Shown here: positions 10,739 to 62,924 of the stretch, in pieces
Layout of the letters: the number at the start of each line of letters is the position of its first letter
Numbering within the stretch: position 1 is the stretch's first letter
NCBI GenBank assembly: GCA_964576535.1
Contig: CAZNWB010000001.1
Coordinates: 243 to 64,242, forward strand
Reading direction: 5' to 3'
From: an uncultured bacterium
GTDB taxonomy: Bacteria; Methylomirabilota; Methylomirabilia; Methylomirabilales; 2-02-FULL-66-22
Length of the DNA: 64,000 bases
Notes under the pieces: generated by a model
Database searches by the model: none
Told to the model about the DNA's origin: nothing
The model's input: the letters and a program-made list of their open reading frames with translations, nothing else
Made by a program: the position numbers and the translations under genes

Positions 10739-12019
10739 TCACTCCCAGGTCCGCTCATCTACGATCTTCTTCGCATCTGCAGGCAGCGTCCCGCCGGGAA
10801 CCACCTCGACCCGGGCCCGAAGCTTGATGCCGTCACGCACGCGCGCCTCCAGGCGTGCGGCGAGGTCTCCCCCCGCGGCCGGACCCTCGACCCGGAGCGT
10901 CAGGTCGTCCTCGAAGCCCTTGCGGCGGACCACGAGCTGATACCGGGTCACCTCTGCCATCTCGGCCATGACTGCGTCGAGCTGGCCGGGGTGCACGAAC
11001 ATCCCGCGGATCTTGGTGGCGTCGTCCGTCCGACCCAGGATCCGGGTGAGACGCGCCGTGGTCCGGCCGCATGCACACACCGATGGGTCCAGCACCGAGA
11101 GATCTCCCGTCCCGAACCGGATCAACGGGTATACCGTGTTGAACGTGGTCACCACGACCTCGCCGGCCGCTCCATCCGGTACCGGATGTCCCGTCTCGGG
11201 ATCCGCGATCTGAACAATCATATCCTCGGACAGGTGCATCCCCGAATGCTGCGGACACTCATAGGCGATGAGTCCCAGATCGGCGCTGGCGTAGGCCTGG
11301 GTGACGTTCACGCCGTATCGCTCTCGCATCGTGGCTCGCAGGGATTCCGGCAGCATGCCGCCCGAGACGAAGGCCACCTCGAGCGAGAGGTCCTGGAGGG
11401 GCTTGATTCCCATCTCCTCGGCCCGCTGCAGGATCGTGTGGAGGAAACTTGGCGTCCCCACGTACCCGGTCGCCTGGACGTGACGGAGCACTTGCACCTG
11501 CGTCTCGGTGTTCCCACCCCCCATTGGGATGACGGCACAGCCGAAGGCGGCCAGGCCCTCGTCGCACATGCTGCCAGCCGGCGTCAGATGGTAGGCGAAG
11601 GTGTTGATGGCGATATCGCCCCGGCGGAATCCGGCCCCATACATGGCCCGCGCCATACGCCAGTAGTTTGGCCCGGTCCCTTCCGGATCGTAGATCGGGC
11701 CCGGGGAGATGAAGATGCGCTGCAGGGCCTGGGGCGCGACCGCCACCAAACCGCCGAAAGGCGGATCCTTCTCCTGGAGCGCCGGCAGCTCTCGCTTTCG
11801 GAGGGGCGGGAGGCGAAGCAGATCGTCGGGTTCGCGAAGTTGCTCAAGGGAAACGCCAGCGGCCGCCAATCGCTGCCCCAAATGGGACGTGTGGCTCACC
11901 GCCTGCCGCAGGATGTCCCGCAGGCGCTCTTGGAGAAAATGGCGCCGGGCATCCGGCGCCATCGTCTCCATGGCCCGATCGTAGAAACCAGGACTCCGGT
12001 CAATCCCACCCCGGCCCAC
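10739..12019 (-). CDS. phenylacetate-CoA ligase-like (PaaK / F390 synthetase family) adenylating enzyme
   Basis: The N-terminus reads FYDRAMETM...RRHFLQERL. The family layout is present (TGYVGTPSF, YASADLG, C-terminal ...KIVDERTWE). The start is a GTG behind GGAGGGGG. Confidence 0.7.
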   Translation of the reverse strand: MGRGGIDRSPGFYDRAMETMAPDARRHFLQERLRDILRQAVSHTSHLGQRLAAAGVSLEQLREPDDLLRLPPLRKRELPALQEKDPPFGGLVAVAPQALQRIFISPGPIYDPEGTGPNYWRMARAMYGAGFRRGDIAINTFAYHLTPAGSMCDEGLAAFGCAVIPMGGGNTETQVQVLRHVQATGYVGTPSFLHTILQRAEEMGIKPLQDLSLEVAFVSGGMLPESLRATMRERYGVNVTQAYASADLGLIAYECPQHSGMHLSEDMIVQIADPETGHPVPDGAAGEVVVTTFNTVYPLIRFGTGDLSVLDPSVCACGRTTARLTRILGRTDDATKIRGMFVHPGQLDAVMAEMAEVTRYQLVVRRKGFEDDLTLRVEGPAAGGDLAARLEARVRDGIKLRARVEVVPGGTLPADAKKIVDERTWE

Positions 12020-26657: not shown

Positions 26658-26788
26658 AGCGTTCGGTCGTTCGGGGCACCCACGCCACGGCGGTGGAGAT
26701 CCACCGCGGTGCCGTGGGTCCCGGTGGTTCGGTCGTTCTTGATCTGAGGGAACCACCGAACGACCGAACTGCCGAACCGTCGAACGCT
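26658..26788. repeat. CGAAC/GTTCG-unit palindromic intercistronic element, copy A
   Basis: The element runs AGCGTTCGGTCGTTCGG...GGTGGTTCGGTCGTTC-loop-GAACCACCGAACGACCGAACTGCCGAACCGTCGAACGCT. A nested palindrome CCCACGCCACGGCGGTGGAGATCCACCGCGGTGCCGTGGG is inserted in the left arm. Confidence 0.85.
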
Positions 26789-32084: not shown

Positions 32085-32173
32085 AGGCGTTCGATTGTTC
32101 GAGCGTTCGGTGGTTCGGTGGTTCGCATTCCGAGAGAACGATCGAACAACCGAACTGCCGAACGACCGAACGC
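32085..32173. repeat. CGAAC/GTTCG-unit palindromic intercistronic element, copy B
   Basis: The sequence is AGGCGTTCGATTGTTCGAGCGTTCGGTGGTTCGGTGGTTCG-loop-AACGATCGAACAACCGAACTGCCGAACGACCGAACGCT. It begins 7 nt after the upstream stop codon. Confidence 0.85.
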
Positions 32174-34203: not shown

Positions 34204-34302
34204 ACGGCGTTCGGCAGTTCGGCAGTTCGGTCGTTCGGTGGTACGAGAACAACCGAACAACCGAACCGTCGAATCCCGCAAGGCGGGAAACAGCCGAACG
34301 TT
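34204..34302. repeat. CGAAC/GTTCG-unit palindromic intercistronic element, copy C
   Basis: The sequence is ACGGCGTTCGGCAGTTCGGCAGTTCGGTCGTTCGGTGGT-loop-AACAACCGAACAACCGAACCGTCGAA-[TCCCGCAAGGCGGGA]-AACAGCCGAACGTT. Confidence 0.85.
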
Positions 34303-36212: not shown

Positions 36213-36301
36213 GAGCGTTCGGTGGTTCAGTGGTTCGACCGTTCGGTGGTTCCCGGACCCCGGAACAACCGAACTACCGAACCGTCGAACTGCCGAACGC
36301 T
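36213..36301. repeat. CGAAC/GTTCG-unit palindromic intercistronic element, copy D
   Basis: The sequence is GAGCGTTCGGTGGTTCAGTGGTTCGACCGTTCGGTGGTTCC-CGGACCCCG-GAACAACCGAACTACCGAACCGTCGAACTGCCGAACGCT. It abuts the stop codon at 36302. Confidence 0.85.
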
Positions 36302-52073: not shown

Positions 52074-52631
52074 TTACCTGGCCGTCGAATGCCCCCGACC
52101 TAGTGGTCGCAAGTAGTCGGGAAGTCGGGTCTTCTCGTCGATGACCGCCGACTCGATCTGCTGAGGCCTGAGACCTATTGCCCCCGAAAGATCGACCCCC
52201 TGAAGCTGGGCACCCTGCAGATTGGCCTGCCAGAAAAACGTCTCGCGGAGATCCGCTCCTTCGAAGTTCGCCTCCTGGAGATTGGCTCCCTGCAGGCTGG
52301 CTCCCTGGAGCTGGGCTTTCTCGAGGTTGGCGCCCTGCAGGTCCGCGCCCTGAAGATGGGCCCCCTGGAGGTTGGCCCCCTGAAGCTGGGCCTCCTGAAG
52401 GTTCGCGCCCTTCAGGTCTGCCCCTTGCAGATCCGCTCCCCGCAGGTCGGCCCCCGCAAGTATCGCACGTTTGCTCAACGGCGCTGATGCAGCCTCAAGG
52501 TTTCGACCGTCAGACAGAGCCCACCCAAGTATAGCCAGGACCGCACAGATTGCCGCTAGCCGGGCGAAAGACCCGGTGCGCCACGGGAATCTCTGGATGG
52601 GCAACCAAAACTGCGGGTGCTGTCGGGCCAT
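52074..52631 (-). CDS. pentapeptide-repeat protein with N-terminal membrane anchor
   Basis: A long run of A(D/N)LxG pentapeptides is present (ADLRGADLQGADLKGANLQEAQLQGANLQGAHLQGADLQGANL...). The start is probably the ATG at 52631. Confidence 0.8.
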   Translation of the reverse strand: MARQHPQFWLPIQRFPWRTGSFARLAAICAVLAILGWALSDGRNLEAASAPLSKRAILAGADLRGADLQGADLKGANLQEAQLQGANLQGAHLQGADLQGANLEKAQLQGASLQGANLQEANFEGADLRETFFWQANLQGAQLQGVDLSGAIGLRPQQIESAVIDEKTRLPDYLRPLGRGHSTAR

Positions 52632-53218
52632 GGACCCCCCTCCCCGGAGGCACCATACATACCCCGGCAGTCCCACTTTCAGCAATACCCTTTACACAGA
52701 GACACCGGGAAGGGGTGGGGAGCGGTCAGGCGGCAAGCGGAACGACCACTATGGGAGGGGATCTTGCCAAAGAGATAAACTACCGCTATCGTCCCCCCTA
52801 TGCCCTGCGGTCTCCGCCGGGCCGCCTCAGTGGTCCTGGACTCCGGGAGAATCCGCGGGATCGAGGAATGCTTTCTTCCCTGTGCGCGGCCTCTCCTCAC
52901 AGGCCCTCCACGCCGCTGCCCAGCGGGGCCAGATGGCCGCGCCCCGGTGGAGGGCGGTGTGGAAGAAGTTGATGTAATTGACAACGTCCCCAATCCCCAA
53001 CGTCCCCAATCCCTACGGATGCAACGTGCCCGCATTTCGCATTTTAAGAACCTCAGAGACCAGATGAGAAGGGGAGAGAGACTCAAATGGGATGAAATGT
53101 GGATGGATCTGCACAACAACCGCGAGGGCCGTTCCGGGAGAAGTGCGTGGGACCTGTTGTGCGAGGGACGTCTAAGAACAATTGATCCCCCCTATAGGGG
53201 GAAAGGCGGTTTCTATTA

Positions 53219-54253: not shown

Positions 54254-54502
54254 TCAGGCGCTTCGCCGCTTCGCCCCGGCTCCACGTTGCTGCCGAAGGA
54301 CCGGCGCGAGAGCGCGTAATGCCTCGTTTACCGTCGCGCCGTCTGGAAAGACATCCAGCACCTCCGGATCGATCACGACGATGTTCGCACCCTGCACATA
54401 TCTCGCGGCCGTTACGCCTCGTACCGCCGTGGAGAAGTCGTACTCAGGCCGCATCGTGTCCCGATCCATATTTCGCCTGCGCTGACTAGCCTTCTTCCTC
54501 AT
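54254..54502 (-). CDS. brnA: BrnA-like antitoxin
   Basis: The pattern MRPEYDFS...VVIDPEVLDVFPDGATVNEALRAL is typical of the small antitoxins encoded just downstream of DUF497/BrnT toxins. The start overlaps the BrnT remnant by 17 nt. Confidence 0.6.
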   Translation of the reverse strand: MRKKASQRRRNMDRDTMRPEYDFSTAVRGVTAARYVQGANIVVIDPEVLDVFPDGATVNEALRALAPVLRQQRGAGAKRRSA

Positions 54503-54780
54503 ATCGCCTCTGCTCTTGTCGTGTGGCCCGCCTCGCGGAGATCAAACGGGTCCGAGGTGGTCGCTCCGCAAAGGCCACCACCACGACCCTTCGCCGATTC
54601 GACACTCCAAGAAGAAGATTCCGTTCCTCACCGAGGGCAGGATCCGGGTCTGGCATGAGCATCGCAAGTGGGTCTCAGAAGACCGTTGATGCTTTATCGA
54701 AGGCCACCCCGTGCTTTCGAGCGTTCGACTCGGCTATCTTCGGATGCCATCGGAAAACGTAGCCCGCTACGCCTCCGCAT
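54486..54780 (-). pseudogene. brnT: BrnT (DUF497) toxin remnant with a frame disruption near the 5' end and an in-frame TGA
   Basis: The minus-strand translation is FRWHPKIAESNARKHGVAFDKASTVF-TGA-DPLAMLMPDPDPALGEERNLLLGVSNRRRVVVVAFAERPPRTRLISARRATRQEQRRYEEEG. This matches the feWDxxKxxxNxxKHGVxFxEAxxVFxDP...EERxxxxG...iRiISARxAtxxE pattern. The stop is at 54675-54677. The only upstream ATG (54780) is in another frame. Confidence 0.75.
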
Positions 54781-54888: not shown

Positions 54889-55227
54889 TTAGGCGGCTCC
54901 TTGTAAGATCTGTTCAATCTGCGGCCTGACTTCAGCAAGACGCTCCTTGATCGTTTTCCATACCAGTTCGTAATCTACCCCAAAGTAGAAGTGAATCAGC
55001 CTATCCCTCATCCCGGCCATCTCCCTCCAGGGAACCTCAGGATGACGTTGCCGTATCTCCTCAGGGACCCCCTTCGTCGCCTCGCCAATGATCTCGAACT
55101 TCCTGATGACCGCGCTCGCAGTCTTGTCATCGAGGCGGAATGCCTCCAAGTCCATCCCCTCTACGAAAGCTTCGATGCTGCGCATTGCGGCCAGGATATC
55201 CTTCAGATAGAGCCTGTAATCCCTCAC
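54889..55227 (-). CDS. hepT: HepT (DUF86, HEPN) toxin
   Basis: The Rx4H HEPN motif is present (RDRLIH). The N-terminus is family-typical ([11 protein letters not shown]). The GTG start overlaps the mntA stop (GTGA). Confidence 0.8.
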
Positions 55228-55523
55228 AGGGGCAGAACCTCTTTAAGCACCGACTCCCGGAGCTCTGCCCTCAGGGCACGCTTGGGGATCACGTCTACCC
55301 CTCGCCCGAGCTCTTCCTCCAGGAACAGCGCCAGCCCCACCAGGTGAAACAGGTCCGCTCCCTCCTCAAAGTCCACCAAGACATCAATATCACTGGCACT
55401 CCGCTGCTCCCCTCGAACGAAAGAACCGAAGAGCCCTACCTCTTTCACCTTGTACCGTGCCGCCATCTTGGGTTTCAGTGCTTTCAGCTTCATCAGAAGA
55501 TCTTTTGTGCTGATACTTGACAT
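55224..55523 (-). CDS. mntA: MntA-type nucleotidyltransferase antitoxin
   Basis: The minimal nucleotidyltransferase motif is [24 protein letters not shown] prefer the ATG at 55523 behind GGGGGAG. The ATG at 55550 is also possible. Confidence 0.8.
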
Positions 55524-55720
55524 TGACTCCCCCACAACTGCTGCAACCATGGGCGGCCTGGCGACGGAGGCTCGCCGGTATCGCGCTGAGCAGGGCCGTC
55601 AGGTGAGTCGAGGCAACCGAGAGAAGCCTGTGAGGCTTCGAGCGCCCAAGTCTTTGGAACGATCGTCAGGACACTGGCCGCGGGCAACCCCGGTCAGATA
55701 GTAGAGGATCTGGCTGGCGA

Positions 55721-56017
55721 TTACGCCCCGTTTCGATCGCCAGTTCCTCCGGCGATCGCCGGCACTATTGACACCTGATCACCGGCCTTCAGGGGTGTCG
55801 CCTGCCCCTGCAGGAAGCGGATGTCTTCCTCGTTCACGTAGATATTGATGAACCGACGGATGTTCCCATCCGCCTCGCACAGGCGGGCTCTGATCCCCGC
55901 ATAGTCCTGCTCCAGGCGGTCGATCAGCTCCTTGACCGTCGCCGCCTCGGCCTTCAGCTCGCCCTGCCCTTTCGTCACTGCCCGCAGCGGGGTGGGAACG
56001 CGCACGAGAACGCTCAT
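55721..56017 (-). CDS. MoaD/ThiS/CysO-like ubiquitin-fold sulfur carrier with a 7-residue extension after the GG motif
   Basis: The sequence reads ...INIYVNEEDIRFLQGQATPLKAGDQVSIVPAIAGG-TGDRNGA-stop. I prefer the ATG at 56017. The GTG at 56023 is the track start. Confidence 0.8.
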   Translation of the reverse strand: MSVLVRVPTPLRAVTKGQGELKAEAATVKELIDRLEQDYAGIRARLCEADGNIRRFINIYVNEEDIRFLQGQATPLKAGDQVSIVPAIAGGTGDRNGA

Positions 56018-56086
56018 ACTCACATGCCCCCTGTGATTGAAACGTGATGGGTGCCTGACTGCCGTATCCGACCAACCGCCAACGGC

Positions 56087-57358
56087 TCAGGCGCGCCGGG
56101 CGGTCGGGCCCTCCCCGTTCAGCGAGGGGTGCTGGGCCAGCGCCTCGTCAAAGGACGCCAGGGTCGGCTGGATGCCGGTCGGCGCCCGCAGCGCGCCGCC
56201 CAGCGCCTCCTGCGTCTTCAGCCCGTGGCCGGTCACCGAGATCACGGTGACGTCGTCCCGGCCGATCACCCCCTGCTGCGCCAGCTTGCGCGTGGCAGCC
56301 ACGGTGACGCCGCCCGCCGTTTCCGCGAAGATCCCCTCGGTGGCGGCGAGCATCTTCATGGCTTCCACGATCTCGTCGTCCGTGGCGTGCTCCCCGGCCC
56401 CACCGCTCTCCTTGACCACCTTGTAGGCATAGTACCCGTCGGCCGGGTTGCCGATGGCCAGGGACTTGGCGATGGTCCGGGGTTGCTTGACCGGGCGGAT
56501 GATCTCGCTCCCGGCCTTCACCGATGTCACGATGGGCCCGCACCCGGCCGCCTGCGCCACGTGCATCCGCGTGGCAACGGCCGGCAGCAGCCCCAGCTTG
56601 TAGAACTCCTGCAGGCCCTTCCAGACCTTCGTGATCAGGGAGCCGCCGGCGGCCGGCACGATGATGTGGTCGGGCGCCCGCCAGCCCAATTGCTCGGCGA
56701 TCTCGTAACCGAAGGTCTTGGACCCTTCGGCATAATATGGGCGAATATTGATGTTGACGAAGGCCCAGCCGTACTTGTCGGCGACCTCGCTGCACAGCCG
56801 GTTCACCTCGTCGTACGTCCCATCCACCGCCACCACGTTGGGGGCATAGATGGAGGTCCCCAGGACCTTGCCCTGCTCCAGGTCGGCCGGGATGAACACG
56901 AAGCTGGTGAGGCCCCCCTCGGCGGCGTGGGCGGCCACCGAGTTCGCCAGGTTCCCTGTGGAGGCGCAGGCGACTACCGGGAACCCGAACTCCAGCGCCC
57001 GGATCACCGCCACCGCGACCACCCGGTCCTTGAAGGACAGCGTCGGGTGATTGACCGTGTCGTTCTTGACGTAGAGGTTGCTGAGTCCCAGGGCCTTCCC
57101 CAGGTTCCGGGCCCGGACCAGCGGGGTCAGGCCGCAATGCCGCCCCACCGTCACCTCGCCGTCGATGGGAAGCAGCGCCCGGTAGCGCCACATGTTGGGA
57201 GGGCCGGCCTCGATGGCGCGGTGGGTCAGTACCCGCCCGATGCCTGCGTAATCGTAATCCACCTCCAGCGGACCGAAACAGAACTCGCACACGTGAAGCG
57301 GCTTGGCCGGATAGGGTCGGGCGCACTCCCGGCACTTCAGGCCAATCACATATCCCAT
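56087..57358 (-). CDS. threonine-synthase-family PLP enzyme with N-terminal zinc ribbon (MetM-like candidate homocysteine synthase)
   Basis: The zinc ribbon is LKCRECARPYPAKPLHVCEFCFGPLEV and the PLP-lysine context is HPTLSFKDRV. The gene sits inside a SAM-riboswitch-controlled unit next to a MoaD-like gene. The start is an ATG at 57358, with an alternative at 57409. Confidence 0.75.
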   Translation of the reverse strand: MGYVIGLKCRECARPYPAKPLHVCEFCFGPLEVDYDYAGIGRVLTHRAIEAGPPNMWRYRALLPIDGEVTVGRHCGLTPLVRARNLGKALGLSNLYVKNDTVNHPTLSFKDRVVAVAVIRALEFGFPVVACASTGNLANSVAAHAAEGGLTSFVFIPADLEQGKVLGTSIYAPNVVAVDGTYDEVNRLCSEVADKYGWAFVNINIRPYYAEGSKTFGYEIAEQLGWRAPDHIIVPAAGGSLITKVWKGLQEFYKLGLLPAVATRMHVAQAAGCGPIVTSVKAGSEIIRPVKQPRTIAKSLAIGNPADGYYAYKVVKESGGAGEHATDDEIVEAMKMLAATEGIFAETAGGVTVAATRKLAQQGVIGRDDVTVISVTGHGLKTQEALGGALRAPTGIQPTLASFDEALAQHPSLNGEGPTARRA

Positions 57359-57405
57359 CGAGCCATTGCCTCCCGCGGAACCCCGCCGTGGATGGTGAGG
57401 TGATG

Positions 57406-57648
57406 TCACGCAGTTGCCCCGGGGGTGCCGATCGGCCTGACCTTGACCCCCAGGCGGGTCAGGTGCTCAATGCCGCGCTTCAGGTCGTCCTCCGCCCCGG
57501 TGAAATCCAGCGTGGCCTCTCCCGACGCCTCCGTGACCCGGGCCTTGCGGATGTTCGGCACCAGACGGTATGTCTTGGACACGGTGTAGATCAGCGGCTC
57601 ACGCACCAGGTCCGGCGGAAAGATCAACAACAGGCGCAGGGTGGCCAT
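57406..57648 (-). CDS. free-standing NIL-domain protein (about 80 aa), first gene after the SAM riboswitch
   Basis: MATLRLLLIFPPDLVREPLIYTVSKTYRLVPNIRKARVTEASGEATLDFTGAEDDLKRGIEHLTRLGVKV follows the NIL (MetN C-terminal) pattern. The start is an ATG at 57648. Confidence 0.7.
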   Translation of the reverse strand: MATLRLLLIFPPDLVREPLIYTVSKTYRLVPNIRKARVTEASGEATLDFTGAEDDLKRGIEHLTRLGVKVRPIGTPGATA

Positions 57649-57663
57649 GGGGTTTCCCCGGGC

Positions 57664-57698
57664 AAAGAAAAAGCCCCCTCTCGATCCTGAGAAGGGGC
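57664..57698 (-). terminator. intrinsic terminator (expression platform of the SAM-I riboswitch)
   Basis: In the minus-strand RNA, GCCCCUUCUC-AGGAUC-GAGAGGGGGC forms a 10-bp stem with one G-U pair. It is followed by UUUUUCUUU and lies 16 nt upstream of the NIL start codon. Confidence 0.8.
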
Positions 57699-57724
57699 TC
57701 ACGAAAATTCCCGTCAGCCGCCTT

Positions 57725-57824
57725 CTCATCTTTCCCCGCCGAAGGCGGGGCAGGAGTTGGCACCCCGCGTCTCGCGGGGTTGCCGTGGCTTCGTAGGGCC
57801 AGTCCCTCAGCCACTCGGGATGAG
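57725..57824 (-). promoter_or_regulatory. SAM-I (S-box) riboswitch aptamer
   Basis: The minus strand reads CUCAUCCCGAGUGGCUGAGGGACUGGCCCUACGAAGCCACGGCAACC[CCGCGAGACGCGG]GGUGCCAACUCCUGC[CCCGCCUUCGGCGGGG]AAAGAUGAG. It matches the S-box consensus block by block: CUUAUCAAGAG-GG-GGAGGGACUGGCCC-AUGAA-CC-GGCAACC...GGUGC-AA-UCC-GC...AAAGAUAAG. Confidence 0.9.
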
Positions 57825-57839
57825 TCAGCGTTGCGGCGG

Positions 57840-57868
57840 ATTTAAGCAGAGCCAGGTAGTGGTGTCAA
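57840..57868 (-). promoter_or_regulatory. candidate sigma70-type promoter driving the riboswitch leader
   Basis: On the minus strand: TTGACA (57868-57863), a 17-nt spacer, then TTAAAT (57845-57840). The aptamer P1 starts about 15 nt downstream. Confidence 0.6.
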
Positions 57869-57879
57869 GCAAAAAGACG

Positions 57880-58122
57880 CTATCCCGCCACCACGTCCTG
57901 CTCGATGGGGGCGACGATCACGCCCCGCTCCTCCAGCCAGTGAAGGGCATCCGCCAGTTTCCGGTTCTCTCCCTCCAGTTCGAGCATGATCCAGCCGATT
58001 CCCTCCTCCAGGTCGGCCTGGCGGATGTTGAAGACCAGGTCGAATTGCTGGCTCATCGTCCAGATGGCTGGTTCGTCCGCCAGTTGCCCCTGGAAGGTCA
58101 GGTGTACCCGTCGCTTGCCCAT
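57880..58122 (-). CDS. free-standing NIL-domain protein (about 80 aa), last gene of the upstream cysteine module
   Basis: MGKRRVHLTFQGQLADEPAIWTMSQQFDLVFNIRQADLEEGIGWIMLELEGENRKLADALHWLEERGVIV follows the NIL pattern. The start is an ATG at 58122, and the track start is a GTG at 58134. Confidence 0.65.
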   Translation of the reverse strand: MGKRRVHLTFQGQLADEPAIWTMSQQFDLVFNIRQADLEEGIGWIMLELEGENRKLADALHWLEERGVIVAPIEQDVVAG

Positions 58123-58283
58123 GAACCGCCCCACTCAGTGCTTGATTTCATAAACCCGTGACCGCCTCAACCATACCCCAAGAATGTCGCAGACGTAAAG
58201 CCCCTTCTGCTTTCCGGGACCCGGTGAAACTCGAAGGGGAGGCAACCTGAGGCAGGCTGAGGCGGCGATCTGGGGACGATCCG

Positions 58284-58808
58284 TCAGGCCGCCGGCAGGC
58301 TGGCCGGAACCTCGGCGAAGTCCCCACGGACACCGTCCCAGACGTAGTAACGGGCGTCCACGGCCCGGCCAGTGCGGACGGAAACCACCAGGTAGTTGGC
58401 GCCGGGCCAGAGGGGTTCTGAGTCGGCCCGGAGGGCCCGATCCCGATCCATCAGGGAAAAGTAGGCGTCGTGATCCGGGTGAGAGTGGTAGAAGGTCACG
58501 ACATCCCACCCCGCATCGTCCGCCTCGCGGAGCACGCGCAGCACCTCCCGGTCATCCATCCGGTAGGCGGTCCGCGCATCCCGCTCGAATCCCGCGGGAT
58601 CCCGCTGGCGGTCCTGATTGGCGATGTTGCGCACCTGGCGGACCTGGTAGGTCTCGGGCTTCCCCGGCTTGCCGATGACGATCCCGCAGATCTCCTCCGG
58701 GTATCCCGCCTCGGCCTGCCGGACGATCTCGGCCATCTGGATCGCCTGCAAGGGATAGACGGCCGCCATCCGCTCCCCCGTCGTGGTCATCTCCCTCTCG
58801 GTTCGCAT
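58284..58808 (-). CDS. JAMM/MPN+ metalloprotease (Mec/HcyD-like)
   Basis: The motif ExnHxHx7Sx2D is complete (PEEICGIVIG ... HSHPDHDAYFSLMD). The start could be any of three ATGs (58808, 58790, 58769). Confidence 0.85.
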   Translation of the reverse strand: MRTEREMTTTGERMAAVYPLQAIQMAEIVRQAEAGYPEEICGIVIGKPGKPETYQVRQVRNIANQDRQRDPAGFERDARTAYRMDDREVLRVLREADDAGWDVVTFYHSHPDHDAYFSLMDRDRALRADSEPLWPGANYLVVSVRTGRAVDARYYVWDGVRGDFAEVPASLPAA

Positions 58809-59013
58809 CTTCTCACCCGAGGCCCATCCCGTTGGATTTCGGATTGTGGATCACCCAGGGGGTACCCGATTTCGGATTGGTCAAATTCGAAATTCGAAAT
58901 TGGGGTCAGGTCCCGGTGTCTCGGCTCTGGGCTCTCGGCCCGCATTTATCACACGGGGCCCCGTCCCGACCTCCACCTCCCTCGTCGGCGGCGGTCGGGT
59001 CCCTCCCCGGGGG

Positions 59014-59946
59014 CTACCACCAGATATGACTCTGGACGTTCTCCCCCAGGTTCGGGATCTCCTTGAACCAGACGCCAAGGCTCACGTACTTCCATCCACC
59101 ATCGCAGAGCACGCAGACGATCGTGCCCTTCTCCATCCGGTGGGCCACCCGGATGGCGCAGTGAATGACGGCGCCCGAGGAGATACCGGCGAAGATGGCT
59201 TCCTTCGTGGTCAGATCCTTGGTGGCAGCGAAGGCGCACCGGCTGTCCACGATGATCTTCCCATCCAGCAGGCTAGTATCCAGGATCGGCGGGATGAAGC
59301 CCTCCTCCAGGCTCCGCAGTCCCTGCACCAGATCTCCCGGATGGGGTTCCACGGCCACGACCCGGATCTTGGGATTGTATTCCTTCAGGCGCCGGGCGCA
59401 CCCCATGAGGGTCCCCCCGGTCCCCAGGCCCGCCACCAGCACGTCCACCTCGGGACAGTCGCGGATGATCTCGGCCGCCGTCGTCTCGTAGTGCGCCAGG
59501 GGATTGGCCGGATTCCCGTACTGGTATGGCATGTAGTACCGCGGGTCCGCCGCCAGCTGCTGCGCCAGCTTGATGGAGCCGTTGGTGCCCTGGTTCCCAT
59601 CCGAGTAGACGATCTCCGCGCCGAACAGTTCCAGGAGCTGTCTCCGTTCCACGGTCACGTTGTCCGGCACCACGACTTTGACCTTGTACCCCTTCAGCCG
59701 CGCCACCATGGCCAGCGCGATCCCGGTGTTCCCGCTGGTCGGCTCGAGGATGACCTTGTCCGGCGTGAGGTCGCCGCTCCGCTCGGCCGCCTCGATCATG
59801 TACATGGCGATGCGATCCTTCAGGCTGCCGGTGGGGTTGTTCCCCTCCAGCTTGGCGTAGATCCGGACCGTCGGTTTCGGGCTGATCCGGCGGAGCTCAA
59901 CCAGCGGGGTGTTCCCGATGGCCTCCAGGATGCTGGCCGCTTTCAT
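59014..59946 (-). CDS. cysM: CysM-type cysteine synthase (O-phosphoserine / protein-thiocarboxylate-dependent type)
   Basis: The PLP-lysine context is NPTGSLKDR. The strings [36 protein letters not shown] and YQYGNPANP and the aromatic C-terminal tail (...HIWW) closely resemble my recollection of mycobacterial CysM. Confidence 0.8.
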   Translation of the reverse strand: MKAASILEAIGNTPLVELRRISPKPTVRIYAKLEGNNPTGSLKDRIAMYMIEAAERSGDLTPDKVILEPTSGNTGIALAMVARLKGYKVKVVVPDNVTVERRQLLELFGAEIVYSDGNQGTNGSIKLAQQLAADPRYYMPYQYGNPANPLAHYETTAAEIIRDCPEVDVLVAGLGTGGTLMGCARRLKEYNPKIRVVAVEPHPGDLVQGLRSLEEGFIPPILDTSLLDGKIIVDSRCAFAATKDLTTKEAIFAGISSGAVIHCAIRVAHRMEKGTIVCVLCDGGWKYVSLGVWFKEIPNLGENVQSHIWW

Positions 59947-60053
59947 GGATGCAACTCCACCCTGGAGCTCTTCATGCGCCTGCGGAATATCCGGGGCACC
60001 TCAAGGCAAATTGCCATTCTCTCCCCTTCGACTACGGGACCGGTCACACTCGA

Positions 60054-60143
60054 AGCCGTTCGGTTGTTCGGTGGTTCGTTGGTTCGGTGGTTCCCTTCTG
60101 AGACGAACAACCGAACCACCGAACAGTCGAACCCCCGAACGCC
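60054..60143. repeat. CGAAC/GTTCG-unit palindromic intercistronic element, copy E
   Basis: The sequence is AGCCGTTCGGTTGTTCGGTGGTTCGTTGGTTCGGTGGTTCC-CTTCTGAGAC-GAACAACCGAACCACCGAACAGTCGAACCCCCGAACGCC. It lies between the Ubl-E1 stop and the cysM start. Confidence 0.85.
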
Positions 60144-60149
60144 TTTTCC

Positions 60150-61241
60150 TCAGGTCGGGCGTGCCGACTGTGGGACGCCGCAGAATTCCTGGTAGTCGAT
60201 GAGGTCCGTGATCGTCGGGTGATCCCCGCACACCGGACAGGTGGGATCCCGGCGGATTTTCACCTGCCGGAACTCCATGCCCAAAGCGTCGAAGAACATC
60301 AGGCGGCCCACCAGGGATTCGCCCAGGCCCAGGAGCAGCTTGATCGTCTCGATGCCCTGGATGGAGGCCACGACACCGCACAGGACGCCGAAGACCCCCG
60401 CCTCCTGGCAGCTCGGCACGAGTCCCGGGGGCGGGGGAGCCGGATACAGGCAGCGGTAGCAGCCCTTCCCGGGCACGAACACCGTGACCTGCCCCTCGAA
60501 CTTGAAGATACTTCCGTCCACCATGGGCTTGTTCAGGAAAAAACAGGCGTCATTCGCCAGGTAGCGCGTCGGGAAGTTGTCGCAGCCATTCACGATCACG
60601 TCGTACTCGGCGAAGATCTGCTTCACGTTCTCCGAGGTCAGGGCCTGGTTGTATGGAACCACCTTCACGTCTGGATTGAGGTCGGCGATGGTCTCCACCG
60701 CCGACTGCACCTTGGGCCGCCCGATGTCGTGGACGTGGTGCAGGATCTGCCGCTGCAGGTTGCTGAGATCCACCACGTCGAAATCCACGATGCCCAGGGT
60801 GCCGACCCCGGCCGCCGCCAGGTACAGTGCCGCCGGCGAGCCGAGCCCGCCCGCCCCGATCAGCAGGACCTTGCTGTTCAGGAGCTTTCGCTGGCCCATG
60901 CCCCCGACCTCGGGGAGGATGATGTGCCGGCTGTACCGCCGGATCTGCTCCTCGGTGAAGCTCAGCGCCCCACCCACCATGGCGGGAATCACCGCCACCT
61001 GATCCCCGTCCCGCAGCGGCGTCTGCATGCCTTGCAGGTCGTCCACCGGCTCATCGTTCACGTAGATGTTCAGGTGCCGGTAGATCTTCCCCTCCGAGTC
61101 CAGGATGCGATCCCGCAGCCCCGGAAACCGCCCCTCCAGCGCCCGGACCAGGGCCAGGACATCGTTCTCCTGGACCTCCACCCGCGAGGCATTGTCGGTG
61201 TACTTGCGGTATGGGGTGGGGATATATACGGTCACAGCCAT
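60150..61241 (-). CDS. fusion protein: MoaD/CysO-like ubiquitin-fold domain (res 1-91, ending GG) + MoeB/ThiF-type E1 adenylyltransferase
   Basis: The junction reads ...LNIYVNDEPVDDLQGMQTPLRDGDQVAVIPAMVGG-A-LSFTEEQIRRYSRHIILPEVGGMGQRKLLNSKVLLIGAGGLGSP.... The E1 zinc motifs are CYRC and CPVC. There is no rhodanese domain. The ORF is continuous and has an AAGGAGGAGG RBS. Confidence 0.8.
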   Translation of the reverse strand: MAVTVYIPTPYRKYTDNASRVEVQENDVLALVRALEGRFPGLRDRILDSEGKIYRHLNIYVNDEPVDDLQGMQTPLRDGDQVAVIPAMVGGALSFTEEQIRRYSRHIILPEVGGMGQRKLLNSKVLLIGAGGLGSPAALYLAAAGVGTLGIVDFDVVDLSNLQRQILHHVHDIGRPKVQSAVETIADLNPDVKVVPYNQALTSENVKQIFAEYDVIVNGCDNFPTRYLANDACFFLNKPMVDGSIFKFEGQVTVFVPGKGCYRCLYPAPPPPGLVPSCQEAGVFGVLCGVVASIQGIETIKLLLGLGESLVGRLMFFDALGMEFRQVKIRRDPTCPVCGDHPTITDLIDYQEFCGVPQSARPT

Positions 61242-61495
61242 CGTCCTCCTCCTTGAGCACCCACCAGAGCCATCAGGACAGGAAGCACTCGCAATATTGC
61301 ATCGCCATGATCACCCAGTCCGCCAGAGGCGGACGCTGGGTACCCGGGTCGCCAAGAAACCACTACTTCCTCAAAGAGACCGGCAGGTTGCCAGTGTTCC
61401 GGTGCGCCCGTTTCAGGACTGCTCTTTCTTTCGGCGTCAGCCCTTTCGACCCATGGCGTTCTTGGCGCCTTGGCGGTTGAAATTCCGGACCCGGG

Positions 61496-62440
61496 CTAGA
61501 TCGCCATGCTGAGATAGCGCTCGCCTGTATCGGGCAGCATGGTGACCACCGTCTTCCCCACGCCCAGCCGCTCCGCCACGCGGAGGGCCGCCACCACGTT
61601 GGCCCCCGAGGACACGCCCACCAGCAGGCCCTCCTCCCGCGAGAGGCGCCGGGTCATGGCCAAGGCCTCCTCGTCGCGAACCCCGATGACCTCGTCGTAG
61701 ATCTCCCGGTTCAGGACGCCGGGGACGAAGCTGGCGCCGATCCCCTGGATCGCGTGCGGCCGGAATTTGCCCCCCTGCAAGACCGGCGCGCGCGCCGGCT
61801 CCACCGCCACCACCAGGACGCCCGGCCGCTCGCGCTTGAGCACCTCCCCCACACCGGTGATGGTGCCCCCCGTCCCCACGCCGGCCACGAAGGCGTCCAC
61901 CTGGCCGTCGGTAGCCTTCAGGATCTCCTGGGCGGTCGTCCGGCGGTGGATCTCGGGATTCGCCGGATTCACAAACTGCTGAGGCATGAAGAATCCCGGG
62001 TGTTCCCGCACCAGCTCCTCGGCCGCAAACACGGCGCCGGTCATTCCCTCCACCGCCGGGGTCAGCGCCAGCTCCGCCCCAAACCGCTGGAGGAGCGCGC
62101 GGCGCTCCAGGCTCATATCCTCGGGCATAGTCAGGATCAGGCGGTAGCCCTTGACCGCCGCCACCATGGCCAAGCCGATGCCGGTGTTGCCCGACGTCGG
62201 CTCGACGATCGTATCGCCGGGCTTCAGCCGGCCCTCGCGCTCCGCCTCCTCCACCATGGCGAGGGCGATCCGATCCTTGACGCTCCCCCCAGGGTTGAGT
62301 GACTCAAGCTTCCCGAACACCGCGGCCCACCCCGGCTTCACCAGCCGGCGCAGGCGGACCAACGGGGTGTCCCCGATCAGGTCCAGTGCGCTGGAAACCA
62401 GCCGTGTCACGCAGGCCTCTTCGCGGAATCCGGTCCGCAT
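61496..62440 (-). CDS. cysK: cysteine synthase A-type PLP enzyme
   Basis: The N-terminal region is [10 protein letters not shown]...NPGGSVKDR, and [10 protein letters not shown] is present. The start is an ATG at 62440, or a GTG at 62410. The 389-aa track ORF overlaps the Rrf2 gene and is an extension. Confidence 0.85.
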
Positions 62441-62477
62441 CCGTCCGATCGCCCGATCGCCCCGCCATCGGCTGGGG

Positions 62478-62924
62478 TCAGATCTGATACGTGATCCGCT
62501 CCTTGGTTCTGGTCCGGATCCGCTCGCAGATGTCCTGGAGCGTCGTGTGATCCACGATGGCCGAGACCGCATCCCGCACGTCGGCCCAGGTATCGCGCAG
62601 GGTGCAGAAGCTTTCCTGCGAGCAATGCTCCCGCGGGCTCTCCGAGACGCAGAAGATGGGCGCAATGGGTCCGTCCACGGCGCGGAGGATTTGCCCCAGG
62701 GTGATCTCCCGTGGCGGCTTGGCCAGGTAATAGCCGCCCTTGACGCCCCGCTTGCTGGCCAGGAACCCGGCTCGCTTCAGGATGAGGAGGAGCTGCTCCA
62801 GATACCTGGCAGGAAGGGCCTGACGTTGTGCGATGGCCTCGATCGGAACCGGCCCCTCCTCGTACCGCATCGCCAAGTCTTGCAAAGCCCGAGTGGCGTA
62901 GTCGCCTTTTGTCGAGATCCTCAT
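62478..62924 (-). CDS. Rrf2 family transcriptional regulator with three-Cys cluster motif
   Basis: The N-terminus is [14 protein letters not shown] and the wHTH is [30 protein letters not shown]. The Cys motif is [16 protein letters not shown] (Cx8Cx5C). Confidence 0.85.

Follow-up and report, generated by a model that had tools for sequence, protein, structure and literature searches.

The window analysed here is a stretch of 64,000 nucleotides from an uncultured bacterium of the phylum Methylomirabilota (NC10). Its minus strand carries, at positions 55721-62924, a locus in which genes of a cysteine pathway stand beside genes predicted to serve homocysteine synthesis, each set with a ubiquitin-like (Ubl) sulfur carrier of the ThiS/MoaD type. 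A preliminary description, made from the letters alone, had read the locus as two sulfur-carrier modules relying on a single E1-type activating enzyme (E1) and a single JAMM protease. Searches with the Pfam, NCBIfam and Rfam profile sets found all nine minus-strand open reading frames (ORFs), the S-adenosylmethionine (SAM)-I riboswitch and the terminator at or near the positions it had assigned, and recovered the ThiS/MoaD, ThiF, JAB, PALP and NIL identities. From the upstream end, the features are:

62478-62924, minus strand: Rrf2-family regulator (Cx8Cx5C motif) at the head of the cysteine module (Pfam Rrf2, 142.9 bits)
61496-62410, minus strand: CysK of the O-acetylserine sulfhydrylase A type, GTG start (TIGR01139, 445 bits; cutoff 351)
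60150-61241, minus strand: ThiS::ThiF (Ubl::E1) fusion (ThiS 46 bits, ThiF 284 bits)
60969-61241, minus strand: CysO/MoaD-like Ubl domain of the fusion, ending Gly90-Gly91 (ThiS 46 bits)
60150-60968, minus strand: E1 adenylyltransferase domain (MoeB/ThiF type) of the fusion (ThiF 284 bits)
59014-59946, minus strand: CysM of the mycobacterial (O-phosphoserine/CysO-thiocarboxylate) type (3DWG/3DKI, 296 bits)
58284-58808, minus strand: JAMM/MPN+ metalloprotease, Mec-like (Prok-JAB, 75 bits)
57880-58134, minus strand: NIL1, a NIL-only protein, last gene of the upstream unit (NIL, 61.9 bits)
57840-57868, minus strand: promoter-like TTGACA-17 nt-TTAAAT (read by eye)
57723-57826, minus strand: SAM-I riboswitch aptamer (RF00162, 90.9 bits, E = 2e-20)
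57661-57700, minus strand: intrinsic terminator of the riboswitch expression platform (12-bp stem, then a U-run; hairpin and U-run at 57671-57700)
57406-57648, minus strand: NIL2, a NIL-only protein, first gene past the riboswitch (NIL, 39.7 bits)
56087-57358, minus strand: MetM-like zinc-ribbon threonine-synthase homologue (PALP, 228.8 bits)
55721-56023, minus strand: MetO-like ThiS/MoaD sulfur carrier (ThiS, 65.8 bits)

Some starts in the raw ORF list were over-extended. Homologue lengths set CysK at 304 aa (389 aa in the listed ORF), the threonine-synthase (ThrC) homologue at 423 aa, with its true start 17 codons inside the listed ORF, and NIL2 at 80 aa. The JAMM protease motif is complete, as had been claimed (HxHx7Sx2D was found). 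The promoter stands in part: TTGACA-17 nt-TTAAAT can be read by eye, but it escaped a consensus scan, as its second hexamer has no A at position 2.

The riboswitch divides the locus, and the genes behind it form the predicted homocysteine branch. RF00162 matches at 90.9 bits against a gathering score of 44.4, over model positions 1-108 of 108, and the minimum-free-energy fold comprises the aptamer and the terminator (z = -4.6). The ThrC homologue carries an N-terminal CxxC...CxxC motif, that is, a four-cysteine zinc ribbon; it scores 276 against NCBIfam TIGR00260 (thrC; cutoff 167), is 53% identical to a Micromonosporaceae protein, and is encoded 63 bp from the MetO-like carrier. A ThrC homologue behind a SAM riboswitch and adjoining a carrier is the arrangement published for MetM/MetO, which bears out the earlier reading of the second half of the locus. 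We predict that this protein is a MetM-like, O-phosphohomoserine-dependent homocysteine synthase.

The closest homologues of both the ThrC homologue and the Ubl::E1 fusion are found in Methylomirabilota genomes and metagenomes. For a wider survey, diverse ThrC-homologue representatives were aligned and one genome per species was scanned, which yielded 80 loci with MetM homologues of 57-68% identity from many phyla (Nitrospinota, Nitrospirota, Elusimicrobiota, Planctomycetota, Desulfobacterota, Aquificota, Poribacteria, Chloroflexota and Verrucomicrobiota). Flanks were annotated with phmmer, and the denominators below are loci with enough flanking sequence. A ThiS-type carrier lies within 1.5 kb of MetM in 59 of 69 survey loci. 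The SAM riboswitch is found directly upstream of the MetM operon in at least 12 of the 80, a lower bound from a covariance model built on four close sequences; in three relatives (L002, L005 and L007; related loci carry such numbers throughout) it sits, as in the window, between the two NIL genes.

The cysteine branch is recognizable by its second cysteine synthase, whose best relative of solved structure is CysM of Mycobacterium tuberculosis (3DWG/3DKI, 296 bits; next cysteine synthase, 259 bits). The alignment runs end to end (residues 5-309 against 8-324), the C-terminal tail included. The arginine that aligns with M. tuberculosis Arg220, which we take to determine O-phosphoserine use, is conserved, and GLRSLEEGF aligns with ALRNMDEGF. 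With M. tuberculosis CysM closest over the full length and the Arg220 equivalent kept, the assignment to the mycobacterial type holds. The Rrf2 regulator passes the superfamily model alone: against the NCBIfam CymR model it scores 114.6 bits, below the cutoff of 195.

Shared operator-like repeats were sought between the genes of the cysteine unit, where the gaps measure 150-250 bp. No convincing operator was found in them, and the search returned CysK/CysM paralogy and a genome-wide element resembling repetitive extragenic palindromes (REP). The REP-like element is an intergenic palindrome of tandem 8-nt units, (GTTCGGTG)n facing (CACCGAAC)n, with 27 matches against 0.69 expected; copies lie at window 60053-60145 and at about 26661-26777, 32097-32171, 34217-34266 and 36217-36290. 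One copy occupies the Ubl::E1-CysM gap, where relative L088 has rhodanese and CysO genes.

Both Ubl proteins of the window resemble CysO. The fused domain scores 58 bits against CysO (3DWG_C) and also matches the Amycolatopsis carrier (4N6E_B); the MetO-like carrier scores 75 and 80 bits against the same two. The two share 42% identity, and each ends at Gly-Gly. In the fusion this Gly-Gly is internal, and in the MetO-like carrier, which ends ...AIAGG-TGDRNGA, it is followed by the 7-residue tail TGDRNGA, so that a free C-terminus would need proteolysis in each case. G90 and G91 at the Ubl/E1 junction are invariant in 60 of 60 fusion homologues, and the residues past Gly-Gly vary. An AlphaFold2 model of the fusion has a mean predicted local distance difference test score (pLDDT) of 85, and residues 89-91 alone form a stretch of at least three residues that falls below 50. 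These features imply that the carriers are probably made as precursors and matured by the JAMM protease. There is a precedent for such cleavage in a Deinococcus JAMM protease that is reported to cut a MoaD-MoaE fusion.

Carriers in the survey loci have related forms. MetO-type carriers end 0-12 residues past Gly-Gly; a carrier is fused via Gly-Gly to a NIL domain in 10 survey loci from several phyla and to an E1 in two, both independent of the Methylomirabilota fusion. A JAB protease, detected with an iterated JAB profile and a full-motif requirement, occurs in 31 of the 80 survey loci, and a JAB gene is present in 10 of the 12 loci with fused carriers as against 21 of 54 others (Fisher p = 0.009). 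When a ThiS::NIL query was run against a database, the best 120 matches were 167-189 aa long (most of them 171-176), had both Pfam domains in every case, and were all called by independent pipelines. ThiS::NIL fusions are a large family. Carrier fusion precursors of these kinds look under-described and appear to be new.

The NIL proteins themselves recur with MetM. NIL1 and NIL2 score 61.9 and 39.7 bits against a PF09383 threshold of 24, are 37% identical, and consist of the NIL domain only (80-84 aa), with no preceding ABC ATPase (TIGR02314, 17 bits; cutoff 500). A NIL domain is found within 3 kb of MetM in 43 of 61 survey loci. NIL1 aligns with the C2 domain of Escherichia coli MetN, the Asn of its 'NIR' motif falling at MetN N295, and N295A is reported to abolish methionine binding by MetN. 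An alignment of 66 NIL domains from the surveyed loci shows conserved EP, NIR and LEL.G motifs. A role as persulfide carrier was considered and rejected, as 50 of the 66 lack cysteine altogether. A different homocysteine route depends on NIL-ferredoxin proteins; Pfam found no Fer4 or DUF39 domain in the cluster. A search of the literature available to us found no link of NIL to ThiS, MetM or threonine synthase. NIL looks to be a regular partner of MetM/MetO that is under-described and appears new; with low confidence, we suggest that it may act as a methionine- or homocysteine-binding regulator or adaptor, 1:1 with the carrier.

Gene order is conserved among the relatives. L002-L004 have the order of the window plus an additional gene for a 166-aa protein. 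This protein, encoded between JAB and NIL1 in several relatives (L002 12904-13404; L005 8690-9190), matches no Pfam family and is missing from the window, where the JAB-NIL1 gap is only 149 bp. L005, L006 and the P0042 contig keep Rrf2, Ubl::E1, JAB, NIL, NIL, the ThrC homologue and the carrier; CysK is kept in the P0042 contig and missing from the L005 and L006 clusters. In Methylomirabilis (L001, L007), the cysteine and methionine parts are separated by genes for YeeE, two TusA, TauE, sulfite reductase (SiR), 3'-phosphoadenosine 5'-phosphosulfate (PAPS) reductase, ATP sulfurylase and rhodanese, and a YNCE-like beta-propeller protein is encoded between SiR and PAPS reductase (L001 17140-18120, L007 5330-6310). 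L088 has the order Rrf2-CysK-Ubl::E1-rhodanese-ThiS-CysM-JAB-rhodanese-rhodanese-TauE-SiR. Its standalone ThiS (11205-11498) is 51% identical to M. tuberculosis CysO and has a 7-residue tail; with it, there are three Ubl paralogue classes in the phylum. An Rrf2 gene heads the cluster in L001, L002, L005, L088 and L089. In L089 (5267-14035), Rrf2-CysK-small sulfite reductase-TusA-PAPS reductase lies upstream of the fusion, and downstream are DsrE-DsrE-DsrH-TusA, DsrMK-like proteins, GcvH and a lipoate ligase, a sulfur-relay context.

Beyond the phylum, 39 survey loci have at least 6 kb on both sides, and only these were counted for E1 and cysteine synthase: an E1 is present in 28, a cysteine synthase in 27 and both in 25. 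A homocysteine module merged with E1, JAMM and cysteine synthases is therefore the usual state, widespread across phyla rather than special to the window; the preliminary description had known of no published case. Chance adjacency, which it had left as a possible outcome of a neighbourhood comparison, was rejected, since the order recurs across the phylum and in distant loci.

Some arrangements in the survey stand apart. In Nitrospirota of the Nitrospira and Leptospirillum types, two different E1 paralogues flank MetM-MetO-NIL, most with CysK upstream, in the order CysK-E1-MetM-MetO-NIL-E1, often followed by JAB (L038, L039, L042, L044, L047, L050, L052-L055, L058, L063, L069, L071, L074, L086, L087). 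The Thermodesulfovibrio group has a second, distant ThrC-like PALP gene directly after MetM-MetO-NIL (L017, L018, L025-L027, L029, L031, L032, L034, L041). Aquificaceae loci L057, L073 and L078, including a contig labelled Aquifex aeolicus, encode a MetM homologue of 59-61% identity with no adjacent carrier; A. aeolicus was listed by Price et al. 2018 as lacking every known homocysteine route.

The sulfur supply to the E1 has to be sought outside the locus. The E1 aligns to positions 4-275 only of the 392-position MoeZ model; it ends 25 residues past the second of its CxxC motifs, with no rhodanese domain. Among its cysteines are those of the two CxxC motifs, Cys278 of the crossover loop, and Cys354 in a short C-terminal tail (DYxEFCG; window 60150-60260). 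By the two-CxxC criterion the enzyme counts as MoeB-like, not MoeZ-like. Cys354 is invariant in 60 fusion homologues, and a cysteine in the C-terminal tail recurs in the cluster E1s of nearly all other phyla, the two rhodanese-bearing E1s included. It might relay sulfur instead of the missing rhodanese, which is only an idea. Annotation of window 20-64 kb found no rhodanese, cysteine desulfurase or sulfite reductase gene, in agreement with the earlier statement that none is visible. The further statement that the sulfur donor is unexplained has been overtaken, as the clusters of relatives hold YeeE, TusA, rhodanese, DsrEFH and sulfite reductase genes. These point to TusA, rhodanese, DsrEFH or sulfite-reductase-derived sulfide as the donor.

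We propose, with a probability of about 0.68, that the locus encodes two protein-thiocarboxylate routes of sulfur incorporation that have one activating enzyme and one protease in common. In this scheme the JAMM protease would cut past Gly-Gly, both freeing the Ubl domain from Ubl::E1 and trimming the 7-residue tail of MetO. The E1, to judge from its family, would then adenylate the C-terminal glycine of each carrier, and the adenylate would be converted to a thiocarboxylate with sulfide or through a persulfide relay encoded elsewhere in the genome. CysM would join O-phosphoserine to the carrier thiocarboxylate, and the JAMM protease would release cysteine. The cysteine carrier of the window is most likely the Ubl released from the E1, because MetO would be switched off by SAM. 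CysK would add an ordinary sulfide route, with the Rrf2 regulator heading the cysteine unit. Behind the riboswitch, presumably of the OFF type, MetM would join O-phosphohomoserine to the MetO thiocarboxylate, and the JAMM protease would release homocysteine. The most speculative step concerns NIL, which we picture as a conserved accessory to homocysteine formation that most likely binds methionine or homocysteine, is stoichiometric with the carrier, and tunes maturation or activation; it would not be a persulfide carrier, because it has no conserved cysteine.

A broader version of this proposal is that carriers of the cysteine and homocysteine routes are commonly ubiquitin-style precursors (Ubl::E1, Ubl::NIL, short tails) that need the JAMM protease of their cluster, and that NIL is an unrecognised third component of MetM/MetO, sensing methionine or homocysteine and gating carrier maturation or activation as a post-translational feedback atop the SAM riboswitch. 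This extension is tentative, and we would sooner expect it to fail in some part than to hold as a whole.

Pairing the fused Ubl with CysM is uncertain and is the weakest enzymatic link of the proposal. We make it because MetO would be off under SAM, cysteine synthesis needs a SAM-independent carrier, and the window has no other. A number of observations weigh against the two-route proposal, most of them at this link. L005, L006 and the P0042 contig keep the fusion with no CysM in the cluster; L088 has its standalone CysO-like ThiS directly upstream of CysM, besides the fusion; and in L089 the fusion stands beside DsrE, DsrE, DsrH and TusA, with neither CysM nor JAB. By these arrangements the fused Ubl may have a role other than serving CysM. 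The earlier equation of the fused Ubl with CysO accordingly survives as a match to CysO and has become doubtful as an identity, given the separate CysO-like gene of L088 and the fusions without CysM in L005 and P0042. Many clusters of other phyla have a single carrier beside MetM and CysM, and MetO might therefore serve both enzymes. To these may be added that the synteny counts are uncorrected for shared ancestry or phylogeny, that the NIL1-MetN match is weak by sequence (18.9 bits), and that no donor gene was annotated in window 20-64 kb.

In a rival reading, the fused Ubl would act on the E1 in cis, as a regulatory or docking domain, or would be the carrier of some other pathway, with CysM supplied, like MetM, by the free MetO-type carrier (or by a CysO from elsewhere in the genome). 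Iyer et al. 2006 (PMC1779556) proposed a non-ThiS role for ThiF-fused Ubl domains. The co-occurrence of fusion, standalone CysO-like carrier and CysM in L088, the fusion without CysM in L005 and the P0042 contig, the TusA/DsrEFH context of the fusion in L089, and the single carrier for MetM and CysM in Nitrospinota-type clusters are all in its favour, as is the closer match of MetO to CysO (75 bits, against 58 for the fused Ubl). However, the junction Gly-Gly is invariant in 60 of 60 fusions and flexible in the model, the sole cluster carrier in L011 and L033 is the E1-fused one, and CysM of the window would be left with no carrier whenever MetO is shut off by SAM. We consider this arrangement unlikely, though it deserves to be kept in view. 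A more radical doubt is whether the ThrC homologue makes homocysteine at all: it passes the thrC model well (276 against 167), and a cyanobacterial homologue was mainly a threonine synthase/deaminase in one study, so that the locus could be a loose assembly of sulfur and amino-acid genes with an ordinary threonine synthase and carriers for molybdopterin, thiamine or tRNA thiolation. The SAM riboswitch directly upstream in the window and 15 other loci, the adjacency of ThrC homologue and carrier in 59 of 69 loci from many phyla, and the lack of any MoaE, ThiG or tRNA thiolase gene in the cluster argue the other way, as does the report that Streptomyces MetM is a homocysteine synthase; we give this reading very little credence. 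The same holds for Ubl-protein conjugation of the SAMPylation type with the JAMM protease as deconjugase, which we regard as highly improbable. The E1 and the Ubls do score against archaeal UbaA and SAMP1 models, and the JAMM protease against a desampylase model, but all three scores fall under the family cutoffs; no E2-like gene is present in the cluster, and the genes are tightly linked to three pyridoxal-phosphate enzymes and to a SAM riboswitch, and in relatives also to those of sulfate assimilation.

The survey suggests that MetM/MetO, first described in 2024 (Hasebe et al. 2024), is spread over many phyla, among them Nitrospirota, Nitrospinota, Planctomycetota, Aquificota and Methylomirabilota. 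Its usual co-location with E1, JAMM and cysteine synthase makes methionine and cysteine prototrophy easier to predict from genomes. The recurrent NIL partner, together with the ThiS::NIL and ThiS::E1 fusions, bears on how carrier thiocarboxylate pathways are regulated, and standalone NIL proteins, so far with no assigned function, gain a candidate ligand-binding role. The fusions also raise the question of whether bacterial sulfur metabolism makes wide use of precursor processing by JAMM proteases, which is a hallmark of ubiquitin.

The rest of the annotated window is of a different character: its 20-55 kb part holds only genes for acyl-coenzyme A (CoA) and aromatic catabolism, for toxin-antitoxin pairs and for a pentapeptide-repeat protein. 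Immediately downstream of MetO, at 54889-55550 on the minus strand, is a toxin-antitoxin pair of an MntA-like nucleotidyltransferase and a HepT-like ribonuclease. At 54254-54662 (minus strand), a short BrnT-toxin-like ORF of 58 aa, matching the C-terminal part of the model only, overlaps an 82-aa ORF for which no family was found; this is possibly a degraded BrnT/BrnA pair. No convincing gene was found at 52.7-54.2 kb, and the pentapeptide-repeat protein lies at 52074-52685 (minus strand). A large block of genes for acyl-CoA and aromatic catabolism extends on the minus strand from about 20000 to 52000, with an HpaB-like hydroxylase, a 1314-aa fused 2-oxoacid:ferredoxin oxidoreductase with DUF6537, an AMP-ligase, four acyl-CoA dehydrogenases, electron transfer flavoprotein alpha/beta with an Fe-S/CCG oxidoreductase, methylmalonyl-CoA mutase with MeaB, and CoA transferases.

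Much of the locus has counterparts in known systems. Iyer et al. 2006 (PMC1779556) catalogued operons of ThiS/MoaD, E1, JAB and cysteine synthase (classes 4c and 4e), the combination also seen in the window, so that the neighbourhood is not as novel as the preliminary description had held. They described, too, a sulfate-assimilation variant in which the E1 lacks a rhodanese and SirA/TusA is always present, and noted Ubl domains fused N-terminally to ThiF. A threonine-synthase homologue and NIL domains, both found in the window, have no occurrence there. The closest counterpart of the homocysteine branch is MetM/MetO of Streptomyces albulus. As summarized in the GapMind 2026 preprint on Hasebe et al. 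2024, MetM of Streptomyces makes homocysteine from O-phosphohomoserine and MetO thiocarboxylate, and Mec and MoeZ are listed as steps of this route. A second paper noted a SAM riboswitch upstream of S. albulus metM. As far as these descriptions go, the two systems agree in a ThrC homologue adjoining a ThiS/MoaD carrier with a SAM riboswitch upstream, and in a Mec-type protease and MoeZ-type E1 common with the cysteine route; they differ in that the window has E1, JAMM and the cysteine enzymes in one locus, two NIL-only proteins flanking the riboswitch, and a 7-residue tail on MetO.

The cysteine branch compares with the well-established mycobacterial route of CysO, CysM, Mec and MoeZR. CysM with its Arg220 equivalent, a CysO-like Ubl with Gly-Gly, a complete-motif JAMM protease, and a MoeB/ThiF-family E1 that could in principle serve several carriers are likenesses to M. 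tuberculosis CysO/CysM/Mec+/MoeZR, and use of one E1 for several carriers is documented in mycobacteria. A common E1 and JAMM protease is accordingly no novelty of the window, contrary to what had been thought, since the MetO/MetM route is already listed with Mec and MoeZ among its steps, and these are also the protease and E1 of the mycobacterial CysO route. Unlike in M. tuberculosis, the E1 of the window is MoeB-like, with two CxxC motifs and without a rhodanese domain, its N-terminus bears the fused carrier, whose Gly-Gly is therefore internal, and the unit includes CysK and an Rrf2 regulator, with neither the ClpS nor the helical protein of the actinobacterial operon.

In the methionine pathway of Wolinella succinogenes (Krishnamoorthy and Begley 2011), HcyS/HcyD/HcyF/MetY are reported to make homocysteine from a carrier thiocarboxylate; a C-terminal extension of the carrier is removed by a JAMM protease, the E1 lacks a rhodanese, and sulfate-reduction genes lie nearby. 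The locus of the window would resemble that system in its carrier chemistry and in the trimming of a carrier extension, and does so in its rhodanese-less E1; relatives L001, L007 and L088 also have sulfate-reduction genes near the cluster. The Wolinella acceptor enzyme is an O-acetylhomoserine sulfhydrylase (MetY), in contrast to the ThrC homologue of the window, a predicted user of O-phosphohomoserine. The NIL proteins share their Pfam domain with the C2 domain of MetN and with the methanogen NIL-ferredoxin (MA1822) that goes with DUF39, have a homocysteine link in common with the latter, and conserve the Asn equivalent to methionine-binding N295 of MetN. They differ in having no ABC ATPase, ferredoxin or DUF39 partner and, in other phyla, in being fused behind the Gly-Gly of a carrier. 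The locus is real and conserved and most likely represents already known thiocarboxylate pathways in a phylum so far unstudied, and its precursor-type carriers and NIL partners look like a new variant on those pathways that is worth testing.

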